Assembly (NCBI GenBank): GCA_965203555.1
Contig: CBDBCY010000004.1
Coordinates: forward strand, 1,536,001-1,600,000
Length of the DNA: 64,000 nucleotides
Source of the DNA: Acidimicrobiia bacterium
GTDB taxonomy: Bacteria > Actinomycetota > Acidimicrobiia > Spongiisociales > ZC4RG35
Direction: 5' to 3'
In this document: positions 43,432-56,983 of the stretch, piece after piece
How the letters are laid out: every line of letters begins with the position of its first letter
Numbering within the stretch: position 1 is the stretch's first letter
Translations under genes and position numbers: made by a program
The notes under the pieces: generated by a model
Databases searched by the model: none
What the model was told of the DNA's origin: nothing
What the model saw: the letters and a program-made list of their open reading frames with translations, nothing else

Positions 43432-43866
43432 ATGATCATCCTCGACACCAATGTCGTATCCGAACTGACGCGTCCCGATCCGGATATCGGCGTTATCGAC
43501 TGGGTCACCCGGCAAGCACCTTCGAACTTGTACGTCTCGTCCATCAGCGAGGCCGAAATGCGTTACGGTGTCGAGATCATGCCAGCAGGCAAGCGCCGTG
43601 ACAGATTGCGCGCCGAGATCAAGGGAATGCTGCGGGAAGACTTTGCGGGGCGCATCCTTCCCTTCGACAGCAACGCCGCTCGATCCTATGCCGCAATAGC
43701 CGCCGACCGCCGCTCTGCCGGACGCCCCATAAACCAGGCCGACTGCCAGATCGCGGCGATCGCCCATTCGCTGGGAGCATGGCTCGCAACCCGAAACACA
43801 ACCGACTTCGCAGGATGCGGCATCGACGTGATCGATCCCTGGTCGGACACCCGGGTCAGGGACTAA
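43432..43866 (+). CDS. FitB/VapC PIN-domain toxin
   Basis: MIILDTNVVSEL, AEMRYG, ADCQIAAIA, LATRNTTDF. Confidence 0.92.
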   Translation: MIILDTNVVSELTRPDPDIGVIDWVTRQAPSNLYVSSISEAEMRYGVEIMPAGKRRDRLRAEIKGMLREDFAGRILPFDSNAARSYAAIAADRRSAGRPINQADCQIAAIAHSLGAWLATRNTTDFAGCGIDVIDPWSDTRVRD

Positions 43867-44054
43867 CCCGTGAGTCGCCACTCCTTCAACATCCCAACCC
43901 GGCCGGTTACAGATAGCGGGCGTGAAACACTATGCATAGTTCGCGTTCGGCCCGATGGTCGAGACGCAGTCCTACTGTGCACCCCACGTTTCAAAGCAGA
44001 TTCAAGGAACCGGAACAGGGCGTTTTCGGTCGGTCAATAGGCCCTCGGCACCTT

Positions 44055-44429
44055 TCAGCCCACGGCGGGAGCGGAAGGTCGGATCTCTCCCAGCAGGGGA
44101 ACAAGCCCCTCGACGGGATCCCGATAATACTTGAGATACTCCTCCGTACCGCGGCGGTGGGAGTAGGCGAGGCGTTCTCGTTCGCTCTCCGGGTAGCCAC
44201 ACTGGGTGATGATGTCATCCAGGGTTGAGGTCAGATAGTTGAATTTCACCCACCGATCCTCCTGCCGGTGATGAACCCAGAAAGTGGGATCATCGACATC
44301 GTAGGGACCAAACTTCTCCAAGTCATCCGCCCACCTGCTCACCAAAATGCGCTCTTCTTCACCGAGTGGGTAGGGAGGGCACTGGTGACCGGTCTCACCG
44401 TGTTTGGAACTGTCCATGGGAACCCACAT
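44055..44429 (-). CDS. Hypothetical protein directly downstream of the cassette array
   Basis: ~120-aa ORF with globular-looking composition; no recognised motif. Confidence 0.5.
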   Translation of the reverse strand: MWVPMDSSKHGETGHQCPPYPLGEEERILVSRWADDLEKFGPYDVDDPTFWVHHRQEDRWVKFNYLTSTLDDIITQCGYPESERERLAYSHRRGTEEYLKYYRDPVEGLVPLLGEIRPSAPAVG

Positions 44430-44813
44430 TAATCCGCCGCTCTGGATTCACTCCTCCCCATATCCCTGTTTGGCTATACCCGTTCCCGGGGTACCGCCCT
44501 GCCGGCGGGATCGACGGTGTGGAGGTCGGGCAGCATCCCCGCCGCCAAAGCCGCGAAACGGGTTCGGTTGGAGGGGCTGGCGATCAGGATGGCCGTCTGG
44601 GCAGGCTTCGGGTGGGTCGGCCCGTCACATGCAGGTCGGTCAGCGTCGTGGTCACGAGTGTCGCGAACGGGAGTTGCTGGTCTCTCATGATCAGGATGGC
44701 GGTCGTCTGGGTGCGCATCGGGTCTGCCGCCCGGTGGCGCACAGGTCGAAGAGACGGTCGGTTGCGATGATCCCGAACGGAAGTTGGCGGGTGAGGCTGA
44801 CCAGGATCGCCGA

Positions 44814-44825
44814 CCCCCCCCCCCC
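44814..44825 (-). repeat. Poly-G tract 3 (G12), selects among cassettes 5/6/7
   Basis: 12 C on the + strand, immediately 5' of cassette 5. Confidence 0.85.
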
Positions 44826-45067
44826 GGTCGGTTACCGGGGCATCACCCGGGTCTGCTGACCCGGTCCCATGGCGTGCAGGTCCGGAATCAGACCGGTCGC
44901 CATCACCCCGAAGATCGCCATGTTCGACGGCCCGGTCATCGCTATCGCCTGCGGGGAATAGCCCGGCTCGGCTGGTTGACTCCGGCGGCGCTGAGGTCCG
45001 GAAGGCAGGTTGTGGCAAGGGATCCGAAGATCGCCCGGTTGTTCGGGGAGGTGACGACGAACGCCGG

Positions 45068-45077
45068 CCCCCCCCCC
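45068..45077 (-). repeat. Poly-G tract 2 (G10), selects cassette 3, cassette 4 or read-through
   Basis: 10 C on the + strand, immediately 5' of cassette 3. Confidence 0.85.
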
Positions 45078-45196
45078 GGTTTATCGTGCCAGACTGCGTG
45101 GTATCACCCGCGTCTGCTGCGACCCCTTGATCGCCGCCAGGTCTGGCAGAGTCGTCGCGGCCAACGCCTGAAAGGTCATGTTCGAGGTCCCCGAGA

Positions 45197-48100
45197 TCAG
45201 GATCGCCGACGGGGTATGACCCGGCAGGCTTGTGATATTCCTCCCCCTTTGAGATCGCAGATCCGAGCGGTGGCGAGGACTGAGAAGATGGTGGAGTTCG
45301 ATCCCGTGGAGACGAGAATTCCCCGAGCCCCCCCCCCCGCTTCCCTATTTGTGCTTTCCTCGCGTGGGAACATCTTGGAAACGGTCTTCACAGACGAGAG
45401 GATGCGGTCATCCTCATACAGCCACAGTTTGGTGAACGGGCGATAGAGCACCTCCCTAACGCGAGATTCGTCAAATATGATCTCCTTGTTCGCTTTCAGG
45501 GCCTGCTTCAAGGTGGCGGTCCATTTGATGGTTTTGAGATTGTCGTTCCTAGTGGCTTGCCGGAAGGTGATTTCACCCTCCTCAACAAAGAACCGCATAT
45601 CTTCATACTCGTCAATGAGCGCCTTGATTCTGGCAATCAGATCGTCCCGAGAAAACGAATACACGTAAGTATCGCAATTGGTTTTCACGCCCGATGCGTG
45701 CTCCGCAACAGCACTACGCTCCTGCTTGTTCGTGGAACAGACCGGCAGCAGCTTCTCAAAGGTACCGTCGGTCAGGTTCACCCAGTCGTGGCGATCGTTG
45801 ACCGGCACCGTCTCGAACTGATCGCTGGTCACGTCCCCCAGTTCCGCCAGCCAGGCGAACTTCTGATCCAAGGTGGAGTATTCGGGTACTTCCGCGTAGC
45901 GGAGAGCGCCGGAGCCGGTCAGGCCCTCCCGTGGATTGCGGACCAGGACGGTGATCTGCACGCCGTTGCGCGATCCCCCACCGAACAGTTTGTCACCCTC
46001 TCGACGAAACTCCTCACCGCTCTTGTAAGCGTCCCCCCGCAGGTTGACCACATAGAGGTCGGTGAATTCGTCGCGTAACGCGGCCCGCATGCCCGCCAGG
46101 GCGGTACCCGTAGCGAGGGAATTGGGATGGATGAACGCCAACACCCCCCCCCCCCGCGGCGCGTCTGGAGTCGCCCAGTCGGTCCGAGGCCCACCGGAAC
46201 GACTTCACATACATATTGCCCGCCGCGTTGCCGCCCGGGGCGCGTCCGGTGACTTCCTTGTGCCGTCTTCCGTAGGTGTCTCTGACCCGTTGTTCGACGT
46301 CCTCATGGACGATGTTCGGGTTGTCGTCCCCGGCAGACTTCTGCCCGGCCGACCAGGGAGGATTCGCCGCTATCACCCGGATGTCCCGCTCGTCCTGGGA
46401 GACCGCCCGTCGAGGGTTCCGGTCCAGGCCGAGCCTTCCCGTCACCGCTCCGGCCAGCGTGTCCCGCAGAACTATGCCCTCGAACGGACGATACCCATCC
46501 TCGAACACTCCGCGAGAGGCGGCGGCCTGCTCGATCTTGAGAGCGGCGATGTAGTAGGCCAGCAGCACCAGATCGTTGGCGTGCAGTTCCTGTTCGTATT
46601 TGCGGACCGCGTCCCGGTCGGATATGAGCGGTTCCCCGTCGGTGTCCGCCAGGGTCAGCAATCTGGAGATGAAAGTGCCGGTCCCGGTGAAGGGATCGAG
46701 TATCTCCACGGCCGGTTCGCTCAGGGAGTAGCCGAAGTGCTTCCGGCACACCGCCTGGGCGCTGCGGAGCATGAAGTCCACCAGGGGAATCGGGGTGTAG
46801 ACGATGCCCAGACGCGCCACCACCTCGGGAACCGCCGATTTGAAGAACCCCTCGTACACGTCCTGGAGGACCTGCAGCTTGGAGGCGACGGGATCGGCGT
46901 CCTCGGAGACATCCTCGAACACCCTGGCAATGCGGTCGTAGGAGCGCTGCAGGGGCTCGATCAGATGATCGAAGTCGAGCCCGGCGTCCCTCAACTCCTC
47001 CATCACCGCGTTGAGGTGTTGGGAAACCGGATTCCGGTCAGCGAAGAGGTGCTCGGCGAAGAAGGCGTCGAACACCGGGATGGTGACCGCATGCTGGGCG
47101 ATCATCTCGGCAGCCTCGGCGCGGCTGAAGGTGGGTATGACGGTTTCTCGGATCTGTTCGGCGAAGGTGTCCAGGGCTTCCGCCGCCCGCCCGTGGCCGG
47201 TTTTGCTCCGAATCTCCGAAAGCACCTTCCGGTAGACCCCGGCGGCCCGGTTGCCCCAGGACGCCCAGTAGTGCCGGTCGCCCACCTGTTCCACCAGCAC
47301 CGACGCTATCTTCGGCAACAGATCGATCTCGGGAAGAGTCGGCTGGTCAGGTTTTCCGGCTGAGGGGTCGTCACCGGTCTTGTCGATGATTCGCAACGGC
47401 GCCTTCTCGGCCAGGCCGGGAGCGTTGACCAAGGCGTCGAAACGCTCGTCGTGGGCGCGGAGTGCCCGGCAGACCCTCCACACCTGTTGGAATGCGGAAC
47501 TTTTCAGAAACTCCTCGGATTGGAGGGTTTCCCCGTCGGGCACCAAAACCGGCACCACGATATAGCCCCTCTGCTTGCCGGGAGCGCGTCTCATCACCCG
47601 CCCCACCGCCTGCACGATATCGATCTCCGACTGACGGGGCGCCAGAAACAGCACGGCGTCCAAGGCCGGGATGTCCACCCCCTCGGAGAGGCAACGGGCG
47701 TTGGTCAGCACCCGGATGGTGCCGGGCGGCTGATCGGCGCCCTTCAACCATCCCACCCGTTCCGACCGCACATAGGCGTTCTGCTTGCCGTCGATGTGTT
47801 CCACGTCCAAGGCCAGCACCGCTCGATTCCGATAATCCTTGGAACGGTCCTGCTGATAGCTGTCGCACAGCCGGCGCCAGTGCTCGGCGACCTTCTTGGA
47901 GTTGACGATCTTGTTGGTGAAAGCGATCGCTCTGCGGCAGTGGTAGTCGGGGTTGAGCATCCCGGCGGCCCGGTCTCTTTCCACCCCCAACGTGGTGGGA
48001 TCGGCCAGGGCGTCCCAGCACCCCACCAACTGCACCCAGTCCTCGGCGTTGAGAATCTGCGACCGGGGCACTTTGCCGGTGGTCTCCCCGTACTGTTTCT

Positions 48101-49361
48101 GGTAATTCTCATAGCTTTCTATGGCATGCTGCTCGCGGTAGGCGATCACCACCACCTGGTAGTCCGACAGCAACTCCGCCTCGATGGCGTCATAGAAACT
48201 CTGCTCGTAGAGAAGCGGCCCATAGAGGAACTCGTCGTCCATGGAATACACCTCCCGCCCTGACCTCCTCCAACCCGCCGCGTAGATCCGCTGGGTGGCG
48301 GTCATGAACAGGCGCCTCCGAGCGTCGAGGCGAGCGGGGTTGTGCACCAGTTGGAAGGGACTCTCCTTTTCTTTGGACCGTTCCACGCCGGTGGTGCGGT
48401 GGGCCTCGTCGCAGATCACCAGATCGAACTCGGGCACGCCCAGGTACTGAGCGTCGCAGACCACCGGCAGCGACTGGTAGGTGGAAAAGACCACGGTCAT
48501 CGCCTCCGGCGCCTCCCGTTTGAGCTTGGAGGCGATCCTCTCGGCGCTGGTGGTGGGTGGCATGGCCAGTTCCATCAGATCGGCGTCCTCGGAGTCCCGG
48601 CCCGACCGGGCGTCCGAGCAGACCGCCAGGTAACGGTGCGGAATCTCCGGATCGCCCTGATATGCCCAGGTCCGCATGGTCTGGCTCATCAGGGCGATGG
48701 AGGGAACCAGATAGAGCACCCGGCCACCCAGACCCACGTTGCGCTCCGCCGCCCACAATCCCACCTCCGACTTTCCCGACCCGCAGGGCATGAGCACCCT
48801 CCCCCGGCTGGAGGGGTGCGAGCCGAACAACCCGTTGCCGATCGCATCCAGCGCTTCTTCCTGGTGCGGGCGGGGAATGTGACGTTCCTCGCCCCAGCGC
48901 AGAGTCTGATCGGGGCGTTCGATAAGATTTCGCCAGTCCCCCACCGGCCAGTTGTCGAGATCGTTCTTGGTGATGATCTGGGTGGAGGCGTCGTTGAGTT
49001 TCTTGCGGGCATTGGCGGAATAGTTGCCGGTGGCCACAAAGATGCGCTCCTCCCACACATCCGCCACCGTGTTGGACAGGAACTTGTTCACCTCGGTGAT
49101 ACTGACCGAACCCGACTTGTAGAACTTGCACTGAATGGCGCACAGCCCGCCCTCTTTCAGTTCACCCACCAGGTCGATGCCGATATCGCCGCCGCCCCGG
49201 CCGGGCCACTCCGACCACAGCCACAGTTTGTCGAAGCGATCCCGGTACTGCGGATTGACCAGGAGGGCTTTGCGGATCAGCTTCTCGAAGGCCCGACCTC
49301 GCTGATACCTCCCGGTGTGATCGGCTCGCAGGCGATCCAGCGCTTCGGCGAGATGCGGCAT
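45197..49361 (-). CDS. Type ISP (LlaGI/LlaBIII-like) restriction-modification enzyme, main chain: Mrr-like nuclease, SF2 helicase, N6-adenine MTase, TRD; frameshifted at a G12 tract
   Basis: GIDLV...AIQCKFY, MPCGSGKS, DEAHRT, MTAT, QAVGRVMR, IVYTP, LDPFTGTGTF, ANPPW. After the tract at 46144-46155 it continues as VLAFIHPNS...YVVNLRGD...SGVKTNCD...LYRPFTK. Removing one G gives a single 1387-aa ORF. Confidence 0.92.
45328..45338 (-). repeat. Poly-G tract 1 (G11), selects cassette 1, cassette 2 or read-through
   Basis: 11 C on the + strand, in frame as EAGGGAR, just 5' of cassette 1. Confidence 0.85.
46144..46155 (-). repeat. Poly-G tract 0 (G12) within the MTase region, candidate ON/OFF phase-variation switch
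   Basis: G11 joins ORF 46014-49361 to ORF 45197-46144; G12 terminates at 46014. Confidence 0.8.
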
Positions 49362-49452: not shown

Positions 49453-50187
49453 ATGTCCGTTCCCCCCGGCACGCTCATCGAACTGCCTCCCGAGCAGCAC
49501 GACCGCGACAACATCACCGACTGGTGCCTTGACCAATTCCGGGACCACTATGGAGACGGGGCCATCACCAAGGACGACATCTGGGAGTATCTGTACGGGG
49601 TGATGCACGCCCCCGACTGGCGGGAGCGATACCGGCACGACCTGCAGCGCAACCTGCCGCGGGTGCCGTTCGCTCCCGACTTCGAGGCATTCGCCGCGGC
49701 GGGCCGTCACCTCATGGATCTGCACATCAACTACGAGACCGTCCCCGAATGGCCGCTTACCTGCCTGGTGGACGATCAGCCCGACGAGGGCGGTTCCGAT
49801 CCCGACGCCTACCGGATCACTCAGAGGAAGATGAGGTGGGGGAAAGACGCAGCCACCAGGACCGCGGACCGCAGCGTGTTCATCATCAACGACCGGTGCC
49901 GGCTGGTGGGCATACCACCCGAAGCCCACGAATACACGGTTTCGGGACGTTCACCGCTGGAATGGGCCATCGACAGCCTGCGCTGGAAACACAACAAGGC
50001 GTCGGGGATAACCGACGATCCCAACGGCTGGCATGCCTGGGCGGACGAGCCGTTCAACCTGATCCGCCACCTCCGCCGCCTCGTCCACATCTCGATCCAC
50101 ACCGCCCGAACCGTGAAGTCCCTGCCGCCTTCGCTGGCGGAACCACAGTCCCCGGGCTCGGCAGACAACCCAACCCCCGAACACTGA
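49453..50187 (+). CDS. Type ISP C-terminal domain encoded as a separate, divergent gene
   Basis: RDNITDWCL..FR.HYGD..ITKDDI..Y.YGVMH.PDWRERY..DL.RNLPRVP, AG..L.DLHINYE, GIP.EA.EY.V.GRSPLEW.ID, SGI..DPN.W: the distal part of Type ISP enzymes. Confidence 0.9.
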   Translation: MSVPPGTLIELPPEQHDRDNITDWCLDQFRDHYGDGAITKDDIWEYLYGVMHAPDWRERYRHDLQRNLPRVPFAPDFEAFAAAGRHLMDLHINYETVPEWPLTCLVDDQPDEGGSDPDAYRITQRKMRWGKDAATRTADRSVFIINDRCRLVGIPPEAHEYTVSGRSPLEWAIDSLRWKHNKASGITDDPNGWHAWADEPFNLIRHLRRLVHISIHTARTVKSLPPSLAEPQSPGSADNPTPEH

Positions 50188-51185: not shown

Positions 51186-51517
51186 CTTTTACCTCCTGTT
51201 TCTTGCGATGCTTGTACTCTTGCCAAAGTTCACGAGCGCTTTCAATGTCCCTTTGCCGGCGCGCTTTGGTCCCACCGCCGAGCAGGATTATCAATGCGCC
51301 TCCGTCTTGGCCGAAATAGACCCGGTAGCCCGGGCCGACTTGTATGCGGCGCTCCAGCACACCGCTGCCGACACCCTTCACATCGGACAGATTTCCCGCC
51401 TCCAGAACGTGCAAGAACCGTCCTCACCCTGGATGCGGCACTGGCGTCGAGCCTGCCGAACCAGCGACCGAACGGACTGCGGCCCCAGTAATCGACGTAT
51501 TCCCTGACCTCCGTCAT
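51169..51517 (-). pseudogene. RelE/ParE-family toxin with a +1 frameshift near 51405
   Basis: MTEVREY...GRSPFGRWF..LD...RV..VLAR then LEAGNLSDVKGVGSGVLERRI..GPGYRVYFG, in two frames. Confidence 0.82.
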
Positions 51518-51519
51518 AT

Positions 51520-51537
51520 GGTAACGCTACCGTTACC
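51520..51537 (-). promoter_or_regulatory. Perfect inverted repeat GGTAACG-N4-CGTTACC at the toxin start (likely operator over a leaderless promoter)
   Basis: Read directly from the sequence, 2 nt upstream of the ATG. Confidence 0.6.
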
Positions 51538-51582
51538 GTCATGCAGAAGCTGGATGTTCGGCATGCTTCATCCTCCACTCTT

Positions 51583-51806
51583 CCGCCCCTCGAGTGGGCG
51601 ATCGACAGCCTGCGCTGGAAGCACGACAAGGCATCAGGAATAACCGACGATCAGAACGGATGGCCTCCTGGACCGACGAACCGTTCAACCTGATCAGACA
51701 TCTGCGGCGGCTCGTGTACGTGTCGGTCGAGACCGCCCGGATCGTGAAATCGCTACCGCTCCCCCTGGAGCCTCAGCAACCCGACTCCTCCGAAGAGAGT
51801 TGCTGA
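51583..51806 (+). pseudogene. Degenerate second copy of the 3' end of the Type ISP C-terminal gene
   Basis: PLEWAIDSLRWKHDKASGITDD.NG / WTDEPFNLIRHLRRLV.VS.ETARIVKSLP, frameshifted; homologous to ~49951-50130. Confidence 0.85.
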
Positions 51807-51892
51807 AGCTCTGAACATCGCTCCCGGCGGTACGTCCGGCGGTGATAAGGTCATGGTCGAGGGGGCCCCGATACGAACAGAAGGAGCGTCTG

Positions 51893-52900
51893 ATGACCCC
51901 TATGTACTTTGAGGAGGATTCCGACCTGAGGCATCTCGCAGGCCGGACCATCTGCATCGTCGGATACGGCAACCAGGGTCGCTCGCAGGCCCTCAACATG
52001 CGGGACAGCGGGCTCGGGGTAATTGTGGGGAGCCGTCGGGACGCCTCTTACCAGACAGCCCTGCAGGACGGCTTCGCGGTGTTTCCGGTTGGGGAAGCGG
52101 TAGCGCGTTCCGATGTGATCTTCCTTCTGGTTCCCGACGAGGTGATGCCCCAGGTCTACGAGGAGGATGTCGCCCCCAACCTCGTGCCCGGCAACATGCT
52201 GGTTTTTGCCAGCGGCTACAACATCGCCTTCGGCCTGATCACACCCTCCTCCGATGTGGACGTGGTCTTGATCGCTCCTCGAATGATCGGCGCAGGAGTC
52301 AGGGACACCTACCTGAGCGGAGAGGGCTTTCCCAGTCTCGTCGCCGTTCACCATGCCGCCACCGAGACGGCCTTCGAGCGGATGCTGGCCCTCTGCGAAG
52401 GGATAGGGTCCACCAGGATGGGCGTGATCGAATCCAGTTTCCTGGAGGAGACGACCGTGGACCTGTTCGCCGAACAGGTGGGCTACCTCTACGCGGTGCG
52501 CCGCTATTGCGAAGTACTGGTGGAGGCCGGTTGCAGTCCCGAGGCGGCCATGCTGGAATTCTATGCCTCGGGTGAGGGCATCGAGACCGCCAAAGCGTAT
52601 CGTGACATCGGGCTCTGGGACCAGATCACCCTGCATTCCCGCACCAGCCAGTACGGGCAGGAAGTGACCAGCCGACTCTCCGCCGAGGAGGAGGAAACCG
52701 AGCGGGACAGGCTGAGAGCGATCATCGCCCACATCCAGGACGGGTCTTTTGCCCGGGATTGGACCGCGGAACAGCAGTCTGGATTCCCCGAGTTCAACCG
52801 GGTCAGGGCGCTGAACATGGCCCATGAAATGCGAACGGCCGAGAGAAGGCTCTACCAAGTGCTGGGACGGATACCGGACAACGGGACAGCTCTGTCCTAA
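51893..52900 (+). CDS. ilvC: Ketol-acid reductoisomerase (class I KARI)
   Basis: IVGYGNQGRSQALNMRDSG, LLVPDE, FASGYNI, EET.VDLFAEQ, SRTSQYG. Confidence 0.82.
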   Translation: MTPMYFEEDSDLRHLAGRTICIVGYGNQGRSQALNMRDSGLGVIVGSRRDASYQTALQDGFAVFPVGEAVARSDVIFLLVPDEVMPQVYEEDVAPNLVPGNMLVFASGYNIAFGLITPSSDVDVVLIAPRMIGAGVRDTYLSGEGFPSLVAVHHAATETAFERMLALCEGIGSTRMGVIESSFLEETTVDLFAEQVGYLYAVRRYCEVLVEAGCSPEAAMLEFYASGEGIETAKAYRDIGLWDQITLHSRTSQYGQEVTSRLSAEEEETERDRLRAIIAHIQDGSFARDWTAEQQSGFPEFNRVRALNMAHEMRTAERRLYQVLGRIPDNGTALS

Positions 52901-52941: not shown

Positions 52942-54078
52942 CTATGACGGCCAGAGCAGACCGTCCCTCAGGACCCGGTGAAAGGTGGCCAACGGCCAAA
53001 CCTGGATACCGTCCTCGGACTGGAAGGACCGCCGCCCGTTATAGACCAGAATGCGGCGGGTTAGCCCAGCCAGGCCTGCTATTGCCCGCAGACCCTTGAG
53101 CATGGTGAGGTTGTATTGACTGGTCGATTTGACTCCGATCGCCAGCCGCTCGTTGTCGCGGGTCAGAACGAAGTCGACCTCGGTCTGGGATTGAGCCGGC
53201 GCCCAGTAGGCGATGTCATCGAACAGAGGCTGCCACTGGGCATGGGCGCGAATCGCGCCGAACACCCACCCCTCGAACAGGGCACCGCGTTCCTCGGGGG
53301 TGACCGGCCCGAATTGCCGCTTCACGGCCCGCACCAAATCGGGATCCACCCAGTAGAGCTTTGGACGGCGCCTTTCCCGAACTCTCAACTTGGTCTCCAG
53401 TGCCGACAGTCGGGTGATCATGAGAGTGTCCTCCAGGATTCCCAGATAACCGGCCACCGTCGATCGGGCCACGCGGGCATCCCGGGCCAAGCTCGCCGAG
53501 TTGACAGTCTGGGCATCCATGAGGGCAGCAACCGGAAGGAATCGAACGAACCCCGGGAGGTTCCGCACGGCCGCCTCCGCCCTGACTTCCTCGCGCAGAT
53601 ACAGCTGTGTGTAGCTCTGAAGCACCCGTCGGCGGTCACCGGACGTCCACACCAAAGGGCTGGTTCCGTACCGGAGCGCATCGACGAGTTTGAAGTCCTT
53701 GCCCAGTTCGGCGGCGGTGGGCGGATGCATCTCCACGTGGAGAGCCCGCCCGGCCAGCAGGTTGGTCCCCGCCGTCTTCAGTTTGTGCGCGCTGGAACCC
53801 AGCAAGGCAAACCGGATGCTCCGGGTCTCGATCAGCCTGTGGATCTCGTTGAGCAGACTCGGGATGCGCTGGACCTCGTCGACCACCACCCATTCGCCAC
53901 CCCGTCGTTGTGAAACCAGATCACGGAACAACACCGGATCGGCCAGCAGATCGGTGAACAGGGCTTCGTCCAGCAGGTCGAAATAGATGGCGTCCGGAAA
54001 GGCGGAACGAGCCCACGTACTCTTTCCAACCCCTCTGGGACCGAACAGAAAGAAGCTTCGGTCGGGAATCCCGGTCAA
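52942..54078 (-). CDS. AAA_14-type ATPase with DUF4143 domain (COG1373); true start uncertain
   Basis: FGPRGVGKST, VDEVQRIP, LLAGRA, PKLYWVD, GALFE, EVDFV. Confidence 0.85.
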   Translation of the reverse strand: MTGIPDRSFFLFGPRGVGKSTWARSAFPDAIYFDLLDEALFTDLLADPVLFRDLVSQRRGGEWVVVDEVQRIPSLLNEIHRLIETRSIRFALLGSSAHKLKTAGTNLLAGRALHVEMHPPTAAELGKDFKLVDALRYGTSPLVWTSGDRRRVLQSYTQLYLREEVRAEAAVRNLPGFVRFLPVAALMDAQTVNSASLARDARVARSTVAGYLGILEDTLMITRLSALETKLRVRERRRPKLYWVDPDLVRAVKRQFGPVTPEERGALFEGWVFGAIRAHAQWQPLFDDIAYWAPAQSQTEVDFVLTRDNERLAIGVKSTSQYNLTMLKGLRAIAGLAGLTRRILVYNGRRSFQSEDGIQVWPLATFHRVLRDGLLWPS

Positions 54079-54217
54079 CCTCGGATAGATCGCAGTTGGA
54101 GAGAATTGTGCGTCATACCGTCAAAAAACGCCGATAAGTGACGGCTATGTATGCATTTTGCACAATGCGTGAGGGATCCGGAAGGCCTGATCCGGGTCCC
54201 GGCCACCTGCGTATCTT

Positions 54218-55504
54218 CTAAACCTCCTGAACGAGTCCTTCGCACCGCCTGCGGGTCCCTTCCTCAGTGACTGCCGGTTCTGGACGTTTCCATAGGCGTA
54301 CGATGAACCGATGTTCCTCTTCGATCAAGTCGGGCTCGGTTCCATTGTGAGCCAACATGGCCGGGATCACCTTGCATCGTATCCCCATGCCGCGGGCGTC
54401 CACATACCGATAGTCGCGCATCACGTTGACCAGCGTCTGGTTCCGGGCGTAGCGCATGCCCGATTTCATTCCCTCCAACGTAACGGTGTTGGGCAATCTG
54501 CCCGGGCTGTGAACCTCGAGCCGGTCGGAGAAGATCAACAGGGTTACGTCCGTGCCGACGATGCTGTAATCTCGATGGACCAGGGCGTTGACCAGGATTT
54601 CCCGGACCGCTTCTTCAGGAAACTCCCAACCGTCGATCCGTCTGGGCCCTTCCAAACGAGCAAACGGTGTGGTGTTGCGCCGAACGAAGTCCCACGCCCC
54701 CTCGACAACCCCGGTTTCGACAATCCGGCCGTCCCTGGAAAGCAGAGGAACCAAGGCGCCCTTGATCGACTCGTCCGCCCGCACCGTATAGTCCGGTTCC
54801 TCGCCGGGATAGCATATGGCCCGGATTCCGGACTGCGGCAGGAAGCGTCCCGTGTTCAGCCCGAAGATGAGCATCCCATCGACAGTGGGCACGGTTTTCC
54901 CTCCCGAAACCACCGCAAAACCCAGGTTGCGCAACAGCGTCTCCCATCCGTCAGAACCTTGAGAGGGAATGTCGCCGTAGTCCAAAACGCGGGTGAAGTA
55001 ATCCTGCAACCGGCGATGATCCACATCTTCGATGTCAGCACCCAACACGGGTTTCAGCCCGTAACGAAGCCCTCCCGACTGCTGATACAGTCGTTGCTCC
55101 TCTTCACGGGAGGCGTCTCGAGTGGTCGTCCCCGCTCGTACCTTGGTTATCCACCCACCTCCCTGTTTGACCTTGTAGGGCTTGTCCGGCGCATTCTGAG
55201 CCAGGTAGATGACACCGATGCCGATACCCGACCCCAACTGCAACACCTGCCACGAAGGTATCAGGGCGGGCTGAATATGATCCCTGGCCACTTGCATGAT
55301 CCATTCTTCAGTTTCTTTCGACTCACGGGCAAGACCGGTGATCGTTCCGTCGTCCTCGACCCCCAGAAGGATGTGTCCGCCTTCCAGGTTGAGCAGAGCA
55401 GCCACTTCGGCCGCAAGCTTCCCTGGGCGGACATCGTCACGCTTGAACTCAACAGCAGAACTCTCGCCGTTTCTTATCATCTCCAGCAGGTCGGTTCTGT
55501 TCAT
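54218..55504 (-). CDS. AlbA_2/Schlafen-like domain plus HATPase_c_4 (RecG-C-like) protein
   Basis: GESSAVEFK, ALLNLEGGHILLGVEDDG, AVREILVNALVHRDYS, IFSDRLEVHSPG.LP, RN, GMGI. Confidence 0.85.
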   Translation of the reverse strand: MNRTDLLEMIRNGESSAVEFKRDDVRPGKLAAEVAALLNLEGGHILLGVEDDGTITGLARESKETEEWIMQVARDHIQPALIPSWQVLQLGSGIGIGVIYLAQNAPDKPYKVKQGGGWITKVRAGTTTRDASREEEQRLYQQSGGLRYGLKPVLGADIEDVDHRRLQDYFTRVLDYGDIPSQGSDGWETLLRNLGFAVVSGGKTVPTVDGMLIFGLNTGRFLPQSGIRAICYPGEEPDYTVRADESIKGALVPLLSRDGRIVETGVVEGAWDFVRRNTTPFARLEGPRRIDGWEFPEEAVREILVNALVHRDYSIVGTDVTLLIFSDRLEVHSPGRLPNTVTLEGMKSGMRYARNQTLVNVMRDYRYVDARGMGIRCKVIPAMLAHNGTEPDLIEEEHRFIVRLWKRPEPAVTEEGTRRRCEGLVQEV

Positions 55505-55557
55505 GAGCCGGTCCCCGACACCAGGGCGTGTTGACGCTTTTGGGGGGGCAGACTTCT

Positions 55558-56775
55558 TCATTTTCGTTGTTTGATCGGGCGTCGGCGCGTGGATCGGCGT
55601 CGGCCGCTCCGGTACTTAGGTCGGGGTGGGCGTCCCCATTGGGTGGGTGGCGGGCGGAGCCGGTAGGCGCCGGTTGTAGTGCGTTCAACCTGCCAGTCAT
55701 TGTCGTGTACTTTGTGGTGGCATCTGCTGCACAGAAGACACATGTTGTCCAGGTTGGTGGGACCCCCGTCTTGCCAGTGGACAATGTGGTGGGCCTGGCA
55801 CCAGGAGGCTTTGGCGCCGCAACCGATGCAGGCCCGGTCGCGGGCGACCAGCGCGGCCCGTTGGGAACCGCTGGCCGTCCGCCGGGCCCGTCCCAAATCC
55901 AGCGGTACCGACGGTCCCGAGAAGATGGCCGGGAGGACTTGCGCGTCGCAGGCCAACTCGCGTAGCGTCTGGGCGGGGAGGGGGGTTCCGTTCTCTAGGC
56001 GAGGGTTGCCCAACTGTTGGCTGACCGCGTCGTAGTCGGCGATCAACAACAACCTCACGTCCTGAGACCGACCGTCTTTTCCTTGGCGGGTGACCAGTTC
56101 GGCTATGGCGTCGGCCATCCGCTGACCCGCAGTAGCCCGATCGGTGGGGTCCTCTTTGTGCCACAGATCCTTCATCATGTGAGACACCGCCGTCTCGACC
56201 CGGGCACCGGTGACCGGGTCGAAACGCCCATACAACACGGTCATTCCGTCGTCTTGGTCGGTGGTGAGCTTGGCGAACCGGCGGGAACGCTGATGCTCCA
56301 ACTTCGACACACCATCATCCTCTGAACGCTTCTGTTCGTGTTTGCGGACCATGCGGGCGAACTTGTCAGGAGACTGGGAACGGGCACCGTCCAACAATTC
56401 ATTCTCGTCAATGGTTCCCCTCTGGTTGGCGCCCGCCAGGATACGCGCGTTGTCAGCAGAGATCTCTCCCTTTTGGAAACCTTCCCGCGTCTTGGGCAGT
56501 TCCTCCAACCCCCGGGCGGTCTCCACCTCCGACCGGGCCTTCCGACGGCCCAACAGCCCGTCCTCCCGCAATATCGTTTCCACCTTCTCCGTTCCCTGGC
56601 GGCGGCGCAACTCCGACACCGCCTGGGCGCGGACCGCCGCCACTTGGTTCTGGACGCGGATGGTGGACTGTATACGCTGTTTCAGTTCTTCGACCGACGC
56701 CTCCACGACCGGCATGGTGGGTGACAGCAACTTGGCCAGGTTGGCGGACCGCCGACGGTTGACTGCTTGTTTCAT
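55558..56775 (-). CDS. DUF222 + HNH endonuclease (13E12-repeat-like)
   Basis: QRMADA, LACDA, PLDLGRARR..S..QRAALVARDRACIGCG, CQAHHIVHWQDGGPTNLDNMCLLCSRCHHKVH. Confidence 0.9.
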   Translation of the reverse strand: MKQAVNRRRSANLAKLLSPTMPVVEASVEELKQRIQSTIRVQNQVAAVRAQAVSELRRRQGTEKVETILREDGLLGRRKARSEVETARGLEELPKTREGFQKGEISADNARILAGANQRGTIDENELLDGARSQSPDKFARMVRKHEQKRSEDDGVSKLEHQRSRRFAKLTTDQDDGMTVLYGRFDPVTGARVETAVSHMMKDLWHKEDPTDRATAGQRMADAIAELVTRQGKDGRSQDVRLLLIADYDAVSQQLGNPRLENGTPLPAQTLRELACDAQVLPAIFSGPSVPLDLGRARRTASGSQRAALVARDRACIGCGAKASWCQAHHIVHWQDGGPTNLDNMCLLCSRCHHKVHDNDWQVERTTTGAYRLRPPPTQWGRPPRPKYRSGRRRSTRRRPIKQRK

Positions 56776-56983
56776 GCCTACAGTATGCACAGGGGGTGTG
56801 ACAAAACATCACCAAGTTGTGAAAACAAACACTAAAATACCGAAAAATCTCACCCCAGAGGTCTACGGCTACCGAAAAGCACCCACCGGGCGCCAGCGAC
56901 AAAACCGGCCTCCCGGTCGGTCAAGATTCCTCCCTCTTATCACCTCCACCTCATCCGCGGCGCGTTTGTAATGTGAACCCGCC

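Follow-up and report, generated by a model that had tools for sequence, protein, structure and literature searches.

In textbooks, the phase variation of restriction-modification (R-M) systems by repeats is an ON/OFF switch, and switching of specificity among several states is thought to need recombinases. Invertible or recombining hsdS genes of Type I systems, such as SpnD39III, reportedly provide multi-state switching of R-M specificity within a clone, and in the repeat-controlled Type I hsdS and Type III mod genes called phasevarions the repeats are said to shift the reading frame and to change methylation; NgoAV is an example of such repeat-controlled systems. To our knowledge, a two-state specificity switch driven by repeats has been shown once, in Helicobacter pylori, and we know of no phasevarion hsdS or mod gene described with alternative homologous modules in all three reading frames. 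The present analysis concerns 64,000 nucleotides of DNA from an Acidimicrobiia bacterium (contig CBDBCY010000004.1 of assembly GCA_965203555.1, positions 1,536,001 to 1,600,000; hereafter the window), the minus strand of which carries, from 49361 to 44474, a gene that its open reading frames (ORFs) and Pfam matches identify as the large subunit of a Type ISP R-M enzyme. At its 3' end lie seven homologous cassettes (C1 to C7), each closed by its own stop codon and grouped behind three poly-G tracts (T1 to T3), and a fourth tract (T0) is found further upstream in the same gene.

As in the hsdS systems, the locus holds several alternative recognition modules, one of which would be chosen. In hsdS systems entire recognition domains are moved, either by a site-specific recombinase or through homologous recombination between inverted repeats, whereas here the choice would be made by reading frame, only one loop module would be swapped and no recombinase was found among the 15 ORFs scanned. 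Similarly, phasevarion hsdS and mod genes show ON/OFF switching or a two-state truncation, in contrast to the alternative homologous modules distributed here across all three frames. The nearest precedent found is that of the H. pylori enzymes JHP1272 (Hpy99XIV) and HP1353-HP1354 of Type IIG. In the available text of Krebes et al. 2014 (PMC3936762), a first homopolymer tract acts as an ON/OFF switch and a second one, near the 3' end, decides whether a small recognition segment is present at the C-terminus and thereby alters the methylated motif. The likeness consists in the combination of an ON/OFF tract with a specificity tract and no recombinase. As far as that text goes, however, specificity in H. 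pylori has two states, set by the presence or absence of the C-terminal domain, whereas 3, 5, 7 or 9 homologous cassettes are found in the family described here, which is of Type ISP, with a motor and an Mrr nuclease, a nested three-way tree and a recognition domain encoded by two genes. The Type ISP enzymes LlaGI and LlaBIII (5FFJ, 4XQK; PMC4872093) share with the window gene the order Mrr nuclease, SF2 ATPase, coupler, gamma-class methyltransferase and recognition domain; in the available text of their structural description each is one polypeptide of a single fixed specificity, free of repeats. Unlike them, the polypeptide studied here ends after Loop VI of the recognition domain, the remainder being a second protein, and seven versions of Loop VI would be selectable.

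The seven peptides and their stops agree letter for letter with those of an earlier interpretation made from the nucleotide sequence without database searches (the sequence-only reading), and the three tracts, which are C homopolymers on the plus strand, lie where it had placed them (Table 1). The same frame rule holds at T1, T2 and T3: G11 leads into the adjacent cassette, G12 or G9 into the second one, and G10 or G13 passes on. In a simulation of this tree with T0 set in frame and T1, T2 and T3 each varied by -1, 0 and +1, all 27 combinations of tract lengths taken together yielded exactly seven C-termini, one per cassette, on products of 1387, 1426, 1472, 1508, 1555, 1591 and 1628 residues, which is the outcome that the sequence-only reading had proposed. 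Its statement that all the linker frames needed are open was likewise borne out, the off-frames required by the tree containing 0 stops in 362 codons versus 14 stops in 196 codons of the off-frames that are not required (Fisher p = 3e-7). Taking the off-frame stop densities of the gene body (37/1336 and 21/1336), all required frames would be open by chance with a probability of about 7e-4. The window contains ten G or C homopolymers of at least 7 bases, and all four that reach at least 10 fall within the large-subunit gene; as in contingency genes, these four poly-G tracts of 10–12 are repeats inside a reading frame with a unit that is not a multiple of three. Adjacent cassettes overlap by 4–13 nucleotides (nt) at a repeated 16-nt junction (family D2), present at four cassette boundaries, at which the stop of one cassette sits inside the first codons of the next ('AIL') in a different frame. 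Tandem Repeats Finder, run over 43800-46400, found nothing; the cassettes are too diverged at the DNA level for this program, and a protein profile was therefore used instead. The C1–C7 array is non-random and conserved.

In order to identify the structural counterpart of the cassette, we made use of an unsplit homologue of 1711 residues from the same genus (L021), which bridges the alignment gap between the large and small parts. Its cassette-equivalent stretch aligns with LlaBIII 1334-1375 and LlaGI 1342-1380 (LlaGI chain 1178-1217, the LlaGI numbering being the chain index + 164). The letters H, G and Q of the LlaGI alignment fall at H1368, G1372 and Q1373, and N of LlaBIII falls at N1360, the latter placed by count along the alignment. 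According to the available text of Kulkarni et al. 2016 (PMC4872093), these four residues read both strands of target position +3, the hairpin 1347-1358 packs on Loop VI and touches the DNA backbone, and the guide subdomain reads no bases. On the LlaGI-based alignment the cassette comprises the strand preceding the β-hairpin, the hairpin itself (1347-1358) and Loop VI (1365-1374); Loops IV and V, which serve positions +4 to +6 in the solved enzymes, belong to the constant part of the large subunit, and the small subunit takes over at I1395 with the conserved helices and contains the guide. The residue following an invariant Asp-Leu occupies the position of LlaGI H1368 and LlaBIII N1360 and differs among the window cassettes (Table 1). 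Over the 376 cassettes collected from related loci (see below) this column holds H in 155, C in 90, A in 61, N and S in 23 each and K in 18, and the scaffold columns F, A, D, L, R, P and R that flank it are nearly invariant. Variability coincides exactly with the columns of the hairpin loop and Loop VI, the scaffold positions being invariant, and comparison with the LlaGI and LlaBIII structures, which the sequence-only reading had suggested as a check, thus places the variable residues in the base-reading loop and its supporting hairpin, as far as the available text of PMC4872093 describes them. The resulting enzyme variants would be expected to share a core sequence and to differ at +3, perhaps at one neighbouring position too; probably one or two target positions are concerned, since one loop with its supporting hairpin is swapped.

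The Type ISP identity that had been proposed, with the cassettes inside the target-recognition domain, is supported by the domain order and by the Type_ISP_C family. Pfam places Mrr_cat_2, the N-terminal nuclease of the Mrr family, at residues 36-147 (E = 1.9e-22), ResIII/DEAD at 162-357 (ResIII E = 2.9e-14) and Helicase_C at 514-592 (E = 3.7e-7), this SF2 ATPase being followed by ISP_coupler at 698-821 (E = 1.3e-22) and N6_Mtase at 830-1006, which is the order of Type ISP enzymes. N6_Mtase scores 18 bits, under its cut-off of 20.4; a gamma-class N6-adenine methyltransferase is nevertheless assigned because the NPPW motif is seen in the translation and the region past T0 aligns with the methyltransferase-recognition unit of LlaGI (E = 1.4e-29) and of LlaBIII. 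The ORF of 315 residues that runs through T1 into C1 matches positions 5-150 of the 342 of Type_ISP_C (E = 5.5e-23) and aligns with LlaGI chain 918-1179 and LlaBIII 1081-1334, up to the residue before T1. At its assembled length, T0 shifts the frame: translation from the start codon ends at 46014 without arriving at T1, and the last ~43 codons, past T0, are out of frame and run into a premature stop. In silico, G11 at T0 restores one continuous frame, joining the ORF that starts at 49361 to ORF 46144-45197, and the homologous tract is 10–11 long in the five relatives of the same genus. The sequence-only reading had C1 selected by T1 as assembled; this agrees with the rule for G11 at T1, but T0, which had been overlooked, breaks the frame and leaves the gene OFF. 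Having missed both T0 and the two-subunit nature of the enzyme, that reading needs to be qualified accordingly.

Type ISP enzymes, which translocate in an ATP-dependent manner, cleave upon head-on collision and methylate a single strand, are single polypeptides, whereas here the recognition domain is split over two genes. The protein encoded divergently from the large-subunit gene matches Type_ISP_C positions 165-341 of 342 (E = 4.8e-50), so that the family is covered from 5 to 150 in the large subunit and from 165 to 341 in the small one, and it aligns with DrdV 824-1026, LlaGI chain 1231-1401 and LlaBIII 1403-1573. In five of five relatives the small-subunit gene opens at its own start codon with stops upstream, as expected of a stand-alone gene. 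Structure prediction of the complex between the 315-residue C-terminus of the large subunit and the small subunit, supplied with separate alignments (A2 and A3, 10 small-subunit rows with an internal stop being excluded from A3), gave a score of 0.83, versus 0.00 for the best of 3 controls; the mark set for this score was reached by 58/80 solved complexes and by 2/110 mismatched pairs, and the score may partly mirror resemblance to the solved unsplit enzymes. The runs share at least 63% of contacts, with a partner pLDDT of 83, and the small subunit is accordingly predicted by the model to dock onto the C-terminal part of the large subunit, the confident contacts falling outside the cassette. 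A break right after Loop VI makes sense of the design, because a frameshift can swap only a C-terminal segment without returning to frame. Over 85 arrays, 45 have the large gene, the array and the small gene colinear, 22 place the small gene before the large one, 11 are divergent like the window and 7 are arranged otherwise; what stays constant is therefore the division into two polypeptides and not the orientation.

Table 1. Features of the R-M locus (positions in the window).
Feature	Positions	Strand	Remarks
Small-subunit gene	49453..50187	+	244 aa; last core helices and 'guide' subdomain of the target-recognition domain
Spacer between the two divergent start codons	49362..49452	.	91 nt; presumed shared promoter
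Large-subunit gene, 5' part as assembled	46014..49361	-	1115 aa; from ORF list and Pfam
Tract T0	46144..46155	-	poly-G, G12 as assembled; proposed ON/OFF switch in the methyltransferase domain
315-aa ORF	45197..46144	-	C-terminal part of the methyltransferase, N-terminal half of the target-recognition domain, T1, C1 and stop
Tract T1	45328..45338	-	G11 (C11 on + strand); branch: C1, C2 or on to T2
Cassette C1	45197..45322	-	type H; Lys after 'DL'; includes own stop
Cassette C2	45081..45209	-	type B; Ala after 'DL'; includes own stop
Tract T2	45068..45077	-	G10 (C10 on + strand); branch: C3, C4 or on to T3
Cassette C3	44942..45067	-	type D; Ser after 'DL'; includes own stop
Cassette C4	44832..44948	-	type C; His after 'DL'; includes own stop
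Tract T3	44814..44825	-	G12 (C12 on + strand); branch: C5, C6 or C7
Cassette C5	44691..44813	-	type E; Cys after 'DL'; includes own stop
Cassette C6	44584..44700	-	type F; His after 'DL'; includes own stop
Cassette C7	44474..44593	-	type A; His after 'DL'; includes own stop; array end

Among 41 related genomes, 10 match the small protein, five of them, all of the same genus, at 80-86% identity. These five share the divergent small gene, orthologous cassettes and open linker frames, with poly-G tracts at matching places but of differing lengths; one of them (G008) has five termini and two tracts, and in another (G015) the contig ends within the array. A wider scan with the small-subunit alignment against one genome per species yielded 79 loci, all from metagenome-assembled genomes, some of which are titled chromosome or complete sequence. 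The label of most is Acidimicrobiia or a related candidate taxon (Candidatus Poriferisocius, Poriferisodalis, Aldehydirespiratoraceae, Spongiisociaceae), two are from Dehalococcoidia and one is from Caldilineaceae. The distribution within the class is patchy: of 401 genomes sampled evenly across it, 11 scored, one of them marginally. Using the profile of the seven window cassettes, tandem arrays were recognized in 77 of the 79 loci, L064 having one cassette and L085 none. A total of 376 cassettes was obtained, each with a stop 36-50 residues past its start, and they fall into ~10 major types that recur in varied order (H-B-D-C-E-F-A in the window). A type is repeated within a strand-level locus in only 9/79 loci, several of which have two separate arrays. 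The layout that the sequence-only reading expected to find in related genomes is thus present as a nested tree in all five same-genus relatives and as an array in nearly all loci, but the number of termini varies.

The branch points of these arrays carry different repeats: besides poly-G, we observe poly-C, (GA)n of up to 66 nt, (AC)n, several tetranucleotides of up to 130 nt, two pentanucleotides (up to 95 nt) and one heptanucleotide. The type of repeat at homologous branch points varies between loci, the unit length not being a multiple of three. Leaving aside strand-level cassette sets longer than 3 kb (loci with two separate arrays), repeats with units of 1, 2, 4, 5 or 7 number 159 in 58.7 kb of arrays versus 99 in the remaining 1.09 Mb, so that frame-shifting repeats are ~30-fold denser in the arrays than in the flanks, whereas trinucleotide repeats are not enriched (31 versus 932 in the remainder). 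We then allowed the frame to change only at repeats, with the upstream frame fixed by a conserved 'RPFxK' motif, in the 61 arrays that have this motif (24 of 85 lack it). Under these rules 285 of the 301 cassettes can be reached as the terminal in-frame cassette, versus 114/301 with random branch points and 52/301 with no frame change. There are 3 termini in 11 of these arrays, 5 in 26, 7 in 17, 9 in 2 and an even number in 5; the 56/61 arrays with 3, 5, 7 or 9 fit the 2k+1 termini expected for k repeats. The lengths as assembled select cassette 1 in 19 arrays, cassette 2 in 12, cassette 3 in 7, cassette 4 in 6, cassette 5 in 4, cassette 6 in one and none in 9 (58 arrays overall, free of N and with the 'RPFxK' motif). 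At least one additional frame-shifting repeat lies within 5 kb upstream in 50/77 arrays, at clade-specific places, and these repeats are candidates for an ON/OFF control like that proposed for T0.

Selection was assessed by comparing the window with four relatives in 22 orthologous cassette pairs, which are not independent as the window is shared by all four comparisons. Of 530 nucleotide differences, 326 are at codon position 3 of the cassette's own frame, and amino-acid differences amount to 160 in the own frame versus 368 and 376 in the two off-frames. Since the own-frame differences concentrate at third positions, cassettes that are presently out of frame are maintained as coding sequence. 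This substitution pattern indicates purifying selection on every cassette in its own frame; staying open is the only constraint on the linkers. Variation in tract length was judged from assembled Logan contigs of public sequencing runs. T3 has one G fewer in runs X9 and X11 (one sample, with the same coded organism, possibly the window's own source), T0 is one shorter, and thereby in frame, in X10, a different sample, and two shorter in X1, a relative from a sponge metagenome. These contig-level differences are compatible with slippage. The array is partly uncovered in X10, X11 and X1, contigs tending to break near the tracts, and comparison of repeat lengths between paired related loci was uninformative, the pairs being only 81-92% identical or unalignable.

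The same contigs revealed further variation in the array. A minority contig of X9 (depth 2.3 versus 6.8) departs from the window at 44508, within the last codons of C7, and the sole X1 contig covering this position likewise departs there, which would give C7 another tail; the divergence is taken as a population or strain variant, not a second locus, because the genome itself holds only the seven cassettes. The 17-nt inverted repeat (94% complementary) between 44489-44505, at the 3' end of C7, and 46093-46109, just downstream of T0, has its left arm abutting this branch point and could be due to chance in G+C-rich DNA.

Taken together, we consider it likely that a choice among Loop VI modules, made at the DNA level and driven by repeats, changes the target specificity of the enzyme, with T0 acting as a master ON/OFF switch. 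In the mechanism that we propose, the large subunit would combine nuclease (Mrr), motor (SF2), coupler and adenine methyltransferase with the N-terminal half of the target-recognition domain, and its gene would end in seven alternative cassettes of ~40 residues, each providing a β-hairpin and Loop VI with its own stop; the constant remainder, i.e. the last core helices and the guide, would come from the separate gene and dock onto the large subunit. Slipped-strand mispairing would alter the lengths of the three poly-G tracts, each of which would give access, in its three frames, to the adjacent cassette, to the next cassette through an off-frame reading of the first, or to the next tract through an off-frame reading of both. 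With k tracts 2k+1 C-termini would be available, here seven, and T0, in the methyltransferase, would toggle the whole enzyme ON and OFF. Cells of one clone would then methylate and restrict different variants of one core sequence. We infer how fast the tracts slip, that the two subunits assemble in the cell and that the recognition sequence changes. The selection of one of seven segments by tract length and without a recombinase, as first read from the sequence, finds support in the conservation of the array, the variety of repeat types at equivalent branch points, the reachability of its cassettes, the selection on their own frames and the structural mapping.

Several observations weigh against this interpretation. 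In the assembled consensus the gene is out of frame at T0 and the enzyme reads OFF. Three of the seven cassettes carry His at the key position, and fewer than seven specificities are therefore possible; of the earlier claim of up to seven recognition sequences, the swapping of a base-reading loop is supported by the structural mapping, and the number may be smaller; only one loop with its hairpin would be exchanged. In the AlphaFold2 model of the 315-residue fragment (mean pLDDT 72.4) residues 264-310, the cassette, have a pLDDT <50, and the fold of the cassette is consequently not confirmed by modelling. Distal cassettes need long, non-conserved linker insertions ahead of them, ~240 residues for C7, which are probably disordered. 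Any switch of restriction specificity would leave unmethylated sites of the cell itself exposed. Each tract difference is seen in one contig per run, at depths of 2-7 and in error-prone homopolymers, and X9 is possibly the window's own sample. Finally, 16/301 cassettes are unreachable under the rules used, and 24/85 arrays, without the upstream motif, were not analysable.

The problem of self-restriction posed by a heritable switch would be avoided if the frame were chosen at the level of RNA or of the ribosome, each cell making all isoforms and being constantly multi-specific rather than phase-variable. Long homopolymers and dinucleotide repeats are indeed known sites of transcriptional slippage and frameshift suppression, and a 2026 preprint (10.64898/2026.04.01.715767), in its available text, describes frame-dependent leaky expression across (AG)n in a mod gene of Mycoplasma bovis. 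However, tract lengths vary between the contigs of different runs and between genomes, and the consensus states pick different cassettes, which indicates that the DNA itself varies; moreover, DNA instability is to be expected of repeats that reach 130 nt. We regard this explanation as unlikely, the two mechanisms not being mutually exclusive.

A switch at the DNA level could also act on another property than specificity, the cassettes altering the level of activity, the balance between methylation and restriction, stability or the docking of the small subunit. The low confidence with which the cassette is modelled and the location of the confident predicted contacts outside it leave some room for such a role, which nevertheless appears quite improbable: the cassette aligns residue for residue with the Loop VI and hairpin that read +3 in the two solved enzymes (PMC4872093, available text), variability is confined exactly to the hairpin loop and Loop VI on an invariant scaffold, and ~ten types recur with repetition of the same type within a locus in only 9/79.

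The downstream cassettes might alternatively be silent donors for recombination, by gene conversion into the first position or deletion between the repeated junctions, the open off-frames being a by-product of G+C-rich sequence. The repetition of the 16-nt D2 junction at four cassette boundaries would suit this explanation, as would one low-depth X10 contig in which 66 nt between 44597 and 44664, from the end of C6 to the start of C7, are skipped, and which may either reflect deletion or recombination inside the array or stem from a related strain. It accounts poorly for the frame-shifting repeats present at the branch points of nearly all arrays, at ~30-fold the density of the flanks, and for the contrast between the open required off-frames and the others, which carry stops. 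In addition, a scan of 15 neighbouring ORFs gave no match to a recombinase family, and the array is not tied to other places by long inverted repeats, the longest one touching it being of 17 nt (I10). The inverted repeats and adjacent recombinase of a shufflon are thus not seen, and all cassettes are on one strand. We hold the donor explanation to be very improbable. An inversion model, prompted by the divergent small gene, was rejected as well: five of five relatives share the orientation, other clades show all three gene orders with separate small genes, and long inverted repeats are missing. That the array is a decaying tandem duplication or an assembly artefact without function, as the break at T0 and the metagenomic origin of all related records might suggest, is hardly credible, being already contradicted by the purifying selection on every cassette in its own frame, by the reachability results, by the recurrence of the layout in 77/79 loci from many independent assemblies, including records titled chromosome or complete, and by contigs of independent runs that cover the array.

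Further observations concern the neighbourhood and the relatives. A likely relic of a second small-subunit gene, at 51502-51782 (+), closely precedes ilvC (51842-52900): ~26 residues are 92% identical to residues 168-193 of the small subunit and, after a frameshift, ~40 residues match 195-234 at 72%, and the sequence ahead of the relic resembles the region upstream of the small gene in G008. The neighbours at 52942-56790 (-), with AAA_14/DUF4143, Schlafen AlbA_2 with HATPase_c_4, and DUF222 with HNH domains, possibly also serve defence, next to the R-M locus. Two paralogues from the same genus, L021 (G008:C82) and L020 (G014:C24), the small-subunit-equivalent parts of which are 54-56% identical to that of the window, offer an 'ordinary' comparison: L021 is one unsplit frame, L020 consists of two colinear parts on one strand, and no G or C run of at least 8 was found in either stretch. 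At L101 (G390:C1:1213500-1232500) three complete systems, each with small gene, large gene and array, stand in tandem on one strand, with two or three repeats in each array and one in each gene body. In L050, L055 and L094, runs of N occur inside or beside branch-point repeats, perhaps as assembly gaps or withheld bases. Stray groups of 2-4 cassettes at L027 7678-7964, L043 7125-7327 and L097 3021-3199 (strand-oriented coordinates), away from the main array and without a repeat or a recognisable upstream gene, are probably remnants.

Repeat-driven phase variation of R-M specificity is known, and as far as our searches reach the present architecture is not described: nested or multi-cassette frameshift trees, split Type ISP enzymes and this family in sponge symbionts were not found in the literature searched, most subscription journals lying outside its coverage, in line with the earlier statement that no description was known. 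We think it likely, on the whole, that a small library of protein modules is stored here in one gene in a manner not described before: nested repeats would form a three-way tree over all reading frames, with homologous loops as its leaves, and the linkers, being that DNA in another frame, would be kept open by selection. The split of the recognition domain after the loop would have been the enabling step; the system would have spread through sponge-associated Acidimicrobiia into Dehalococcoidia and Caldilineaceae, using at least six kinds of repeat unit, and would offer 3 to 9 specificities per locus plus OFF, with up to three loci per genome.

The locus and its ~80 relatives suggest that frame choice alone could address up to nine recognition modules, in a compact, recombinase-free and triple-coded multiplexer. 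For annotators they call for caution, as such genes look like frameshifted pseudogenes followed by junk. The ~ten natural loop types constitute ready variants for specificity carried by Loop VI and its hairpin in Type ISP, Type IIG and BREX-type enzymes. Finally, the family opens to test how selection keeps off-frames open, as well as the diversification of defence within a clone in uncultured symbionts of phage-rich sponge tissue.

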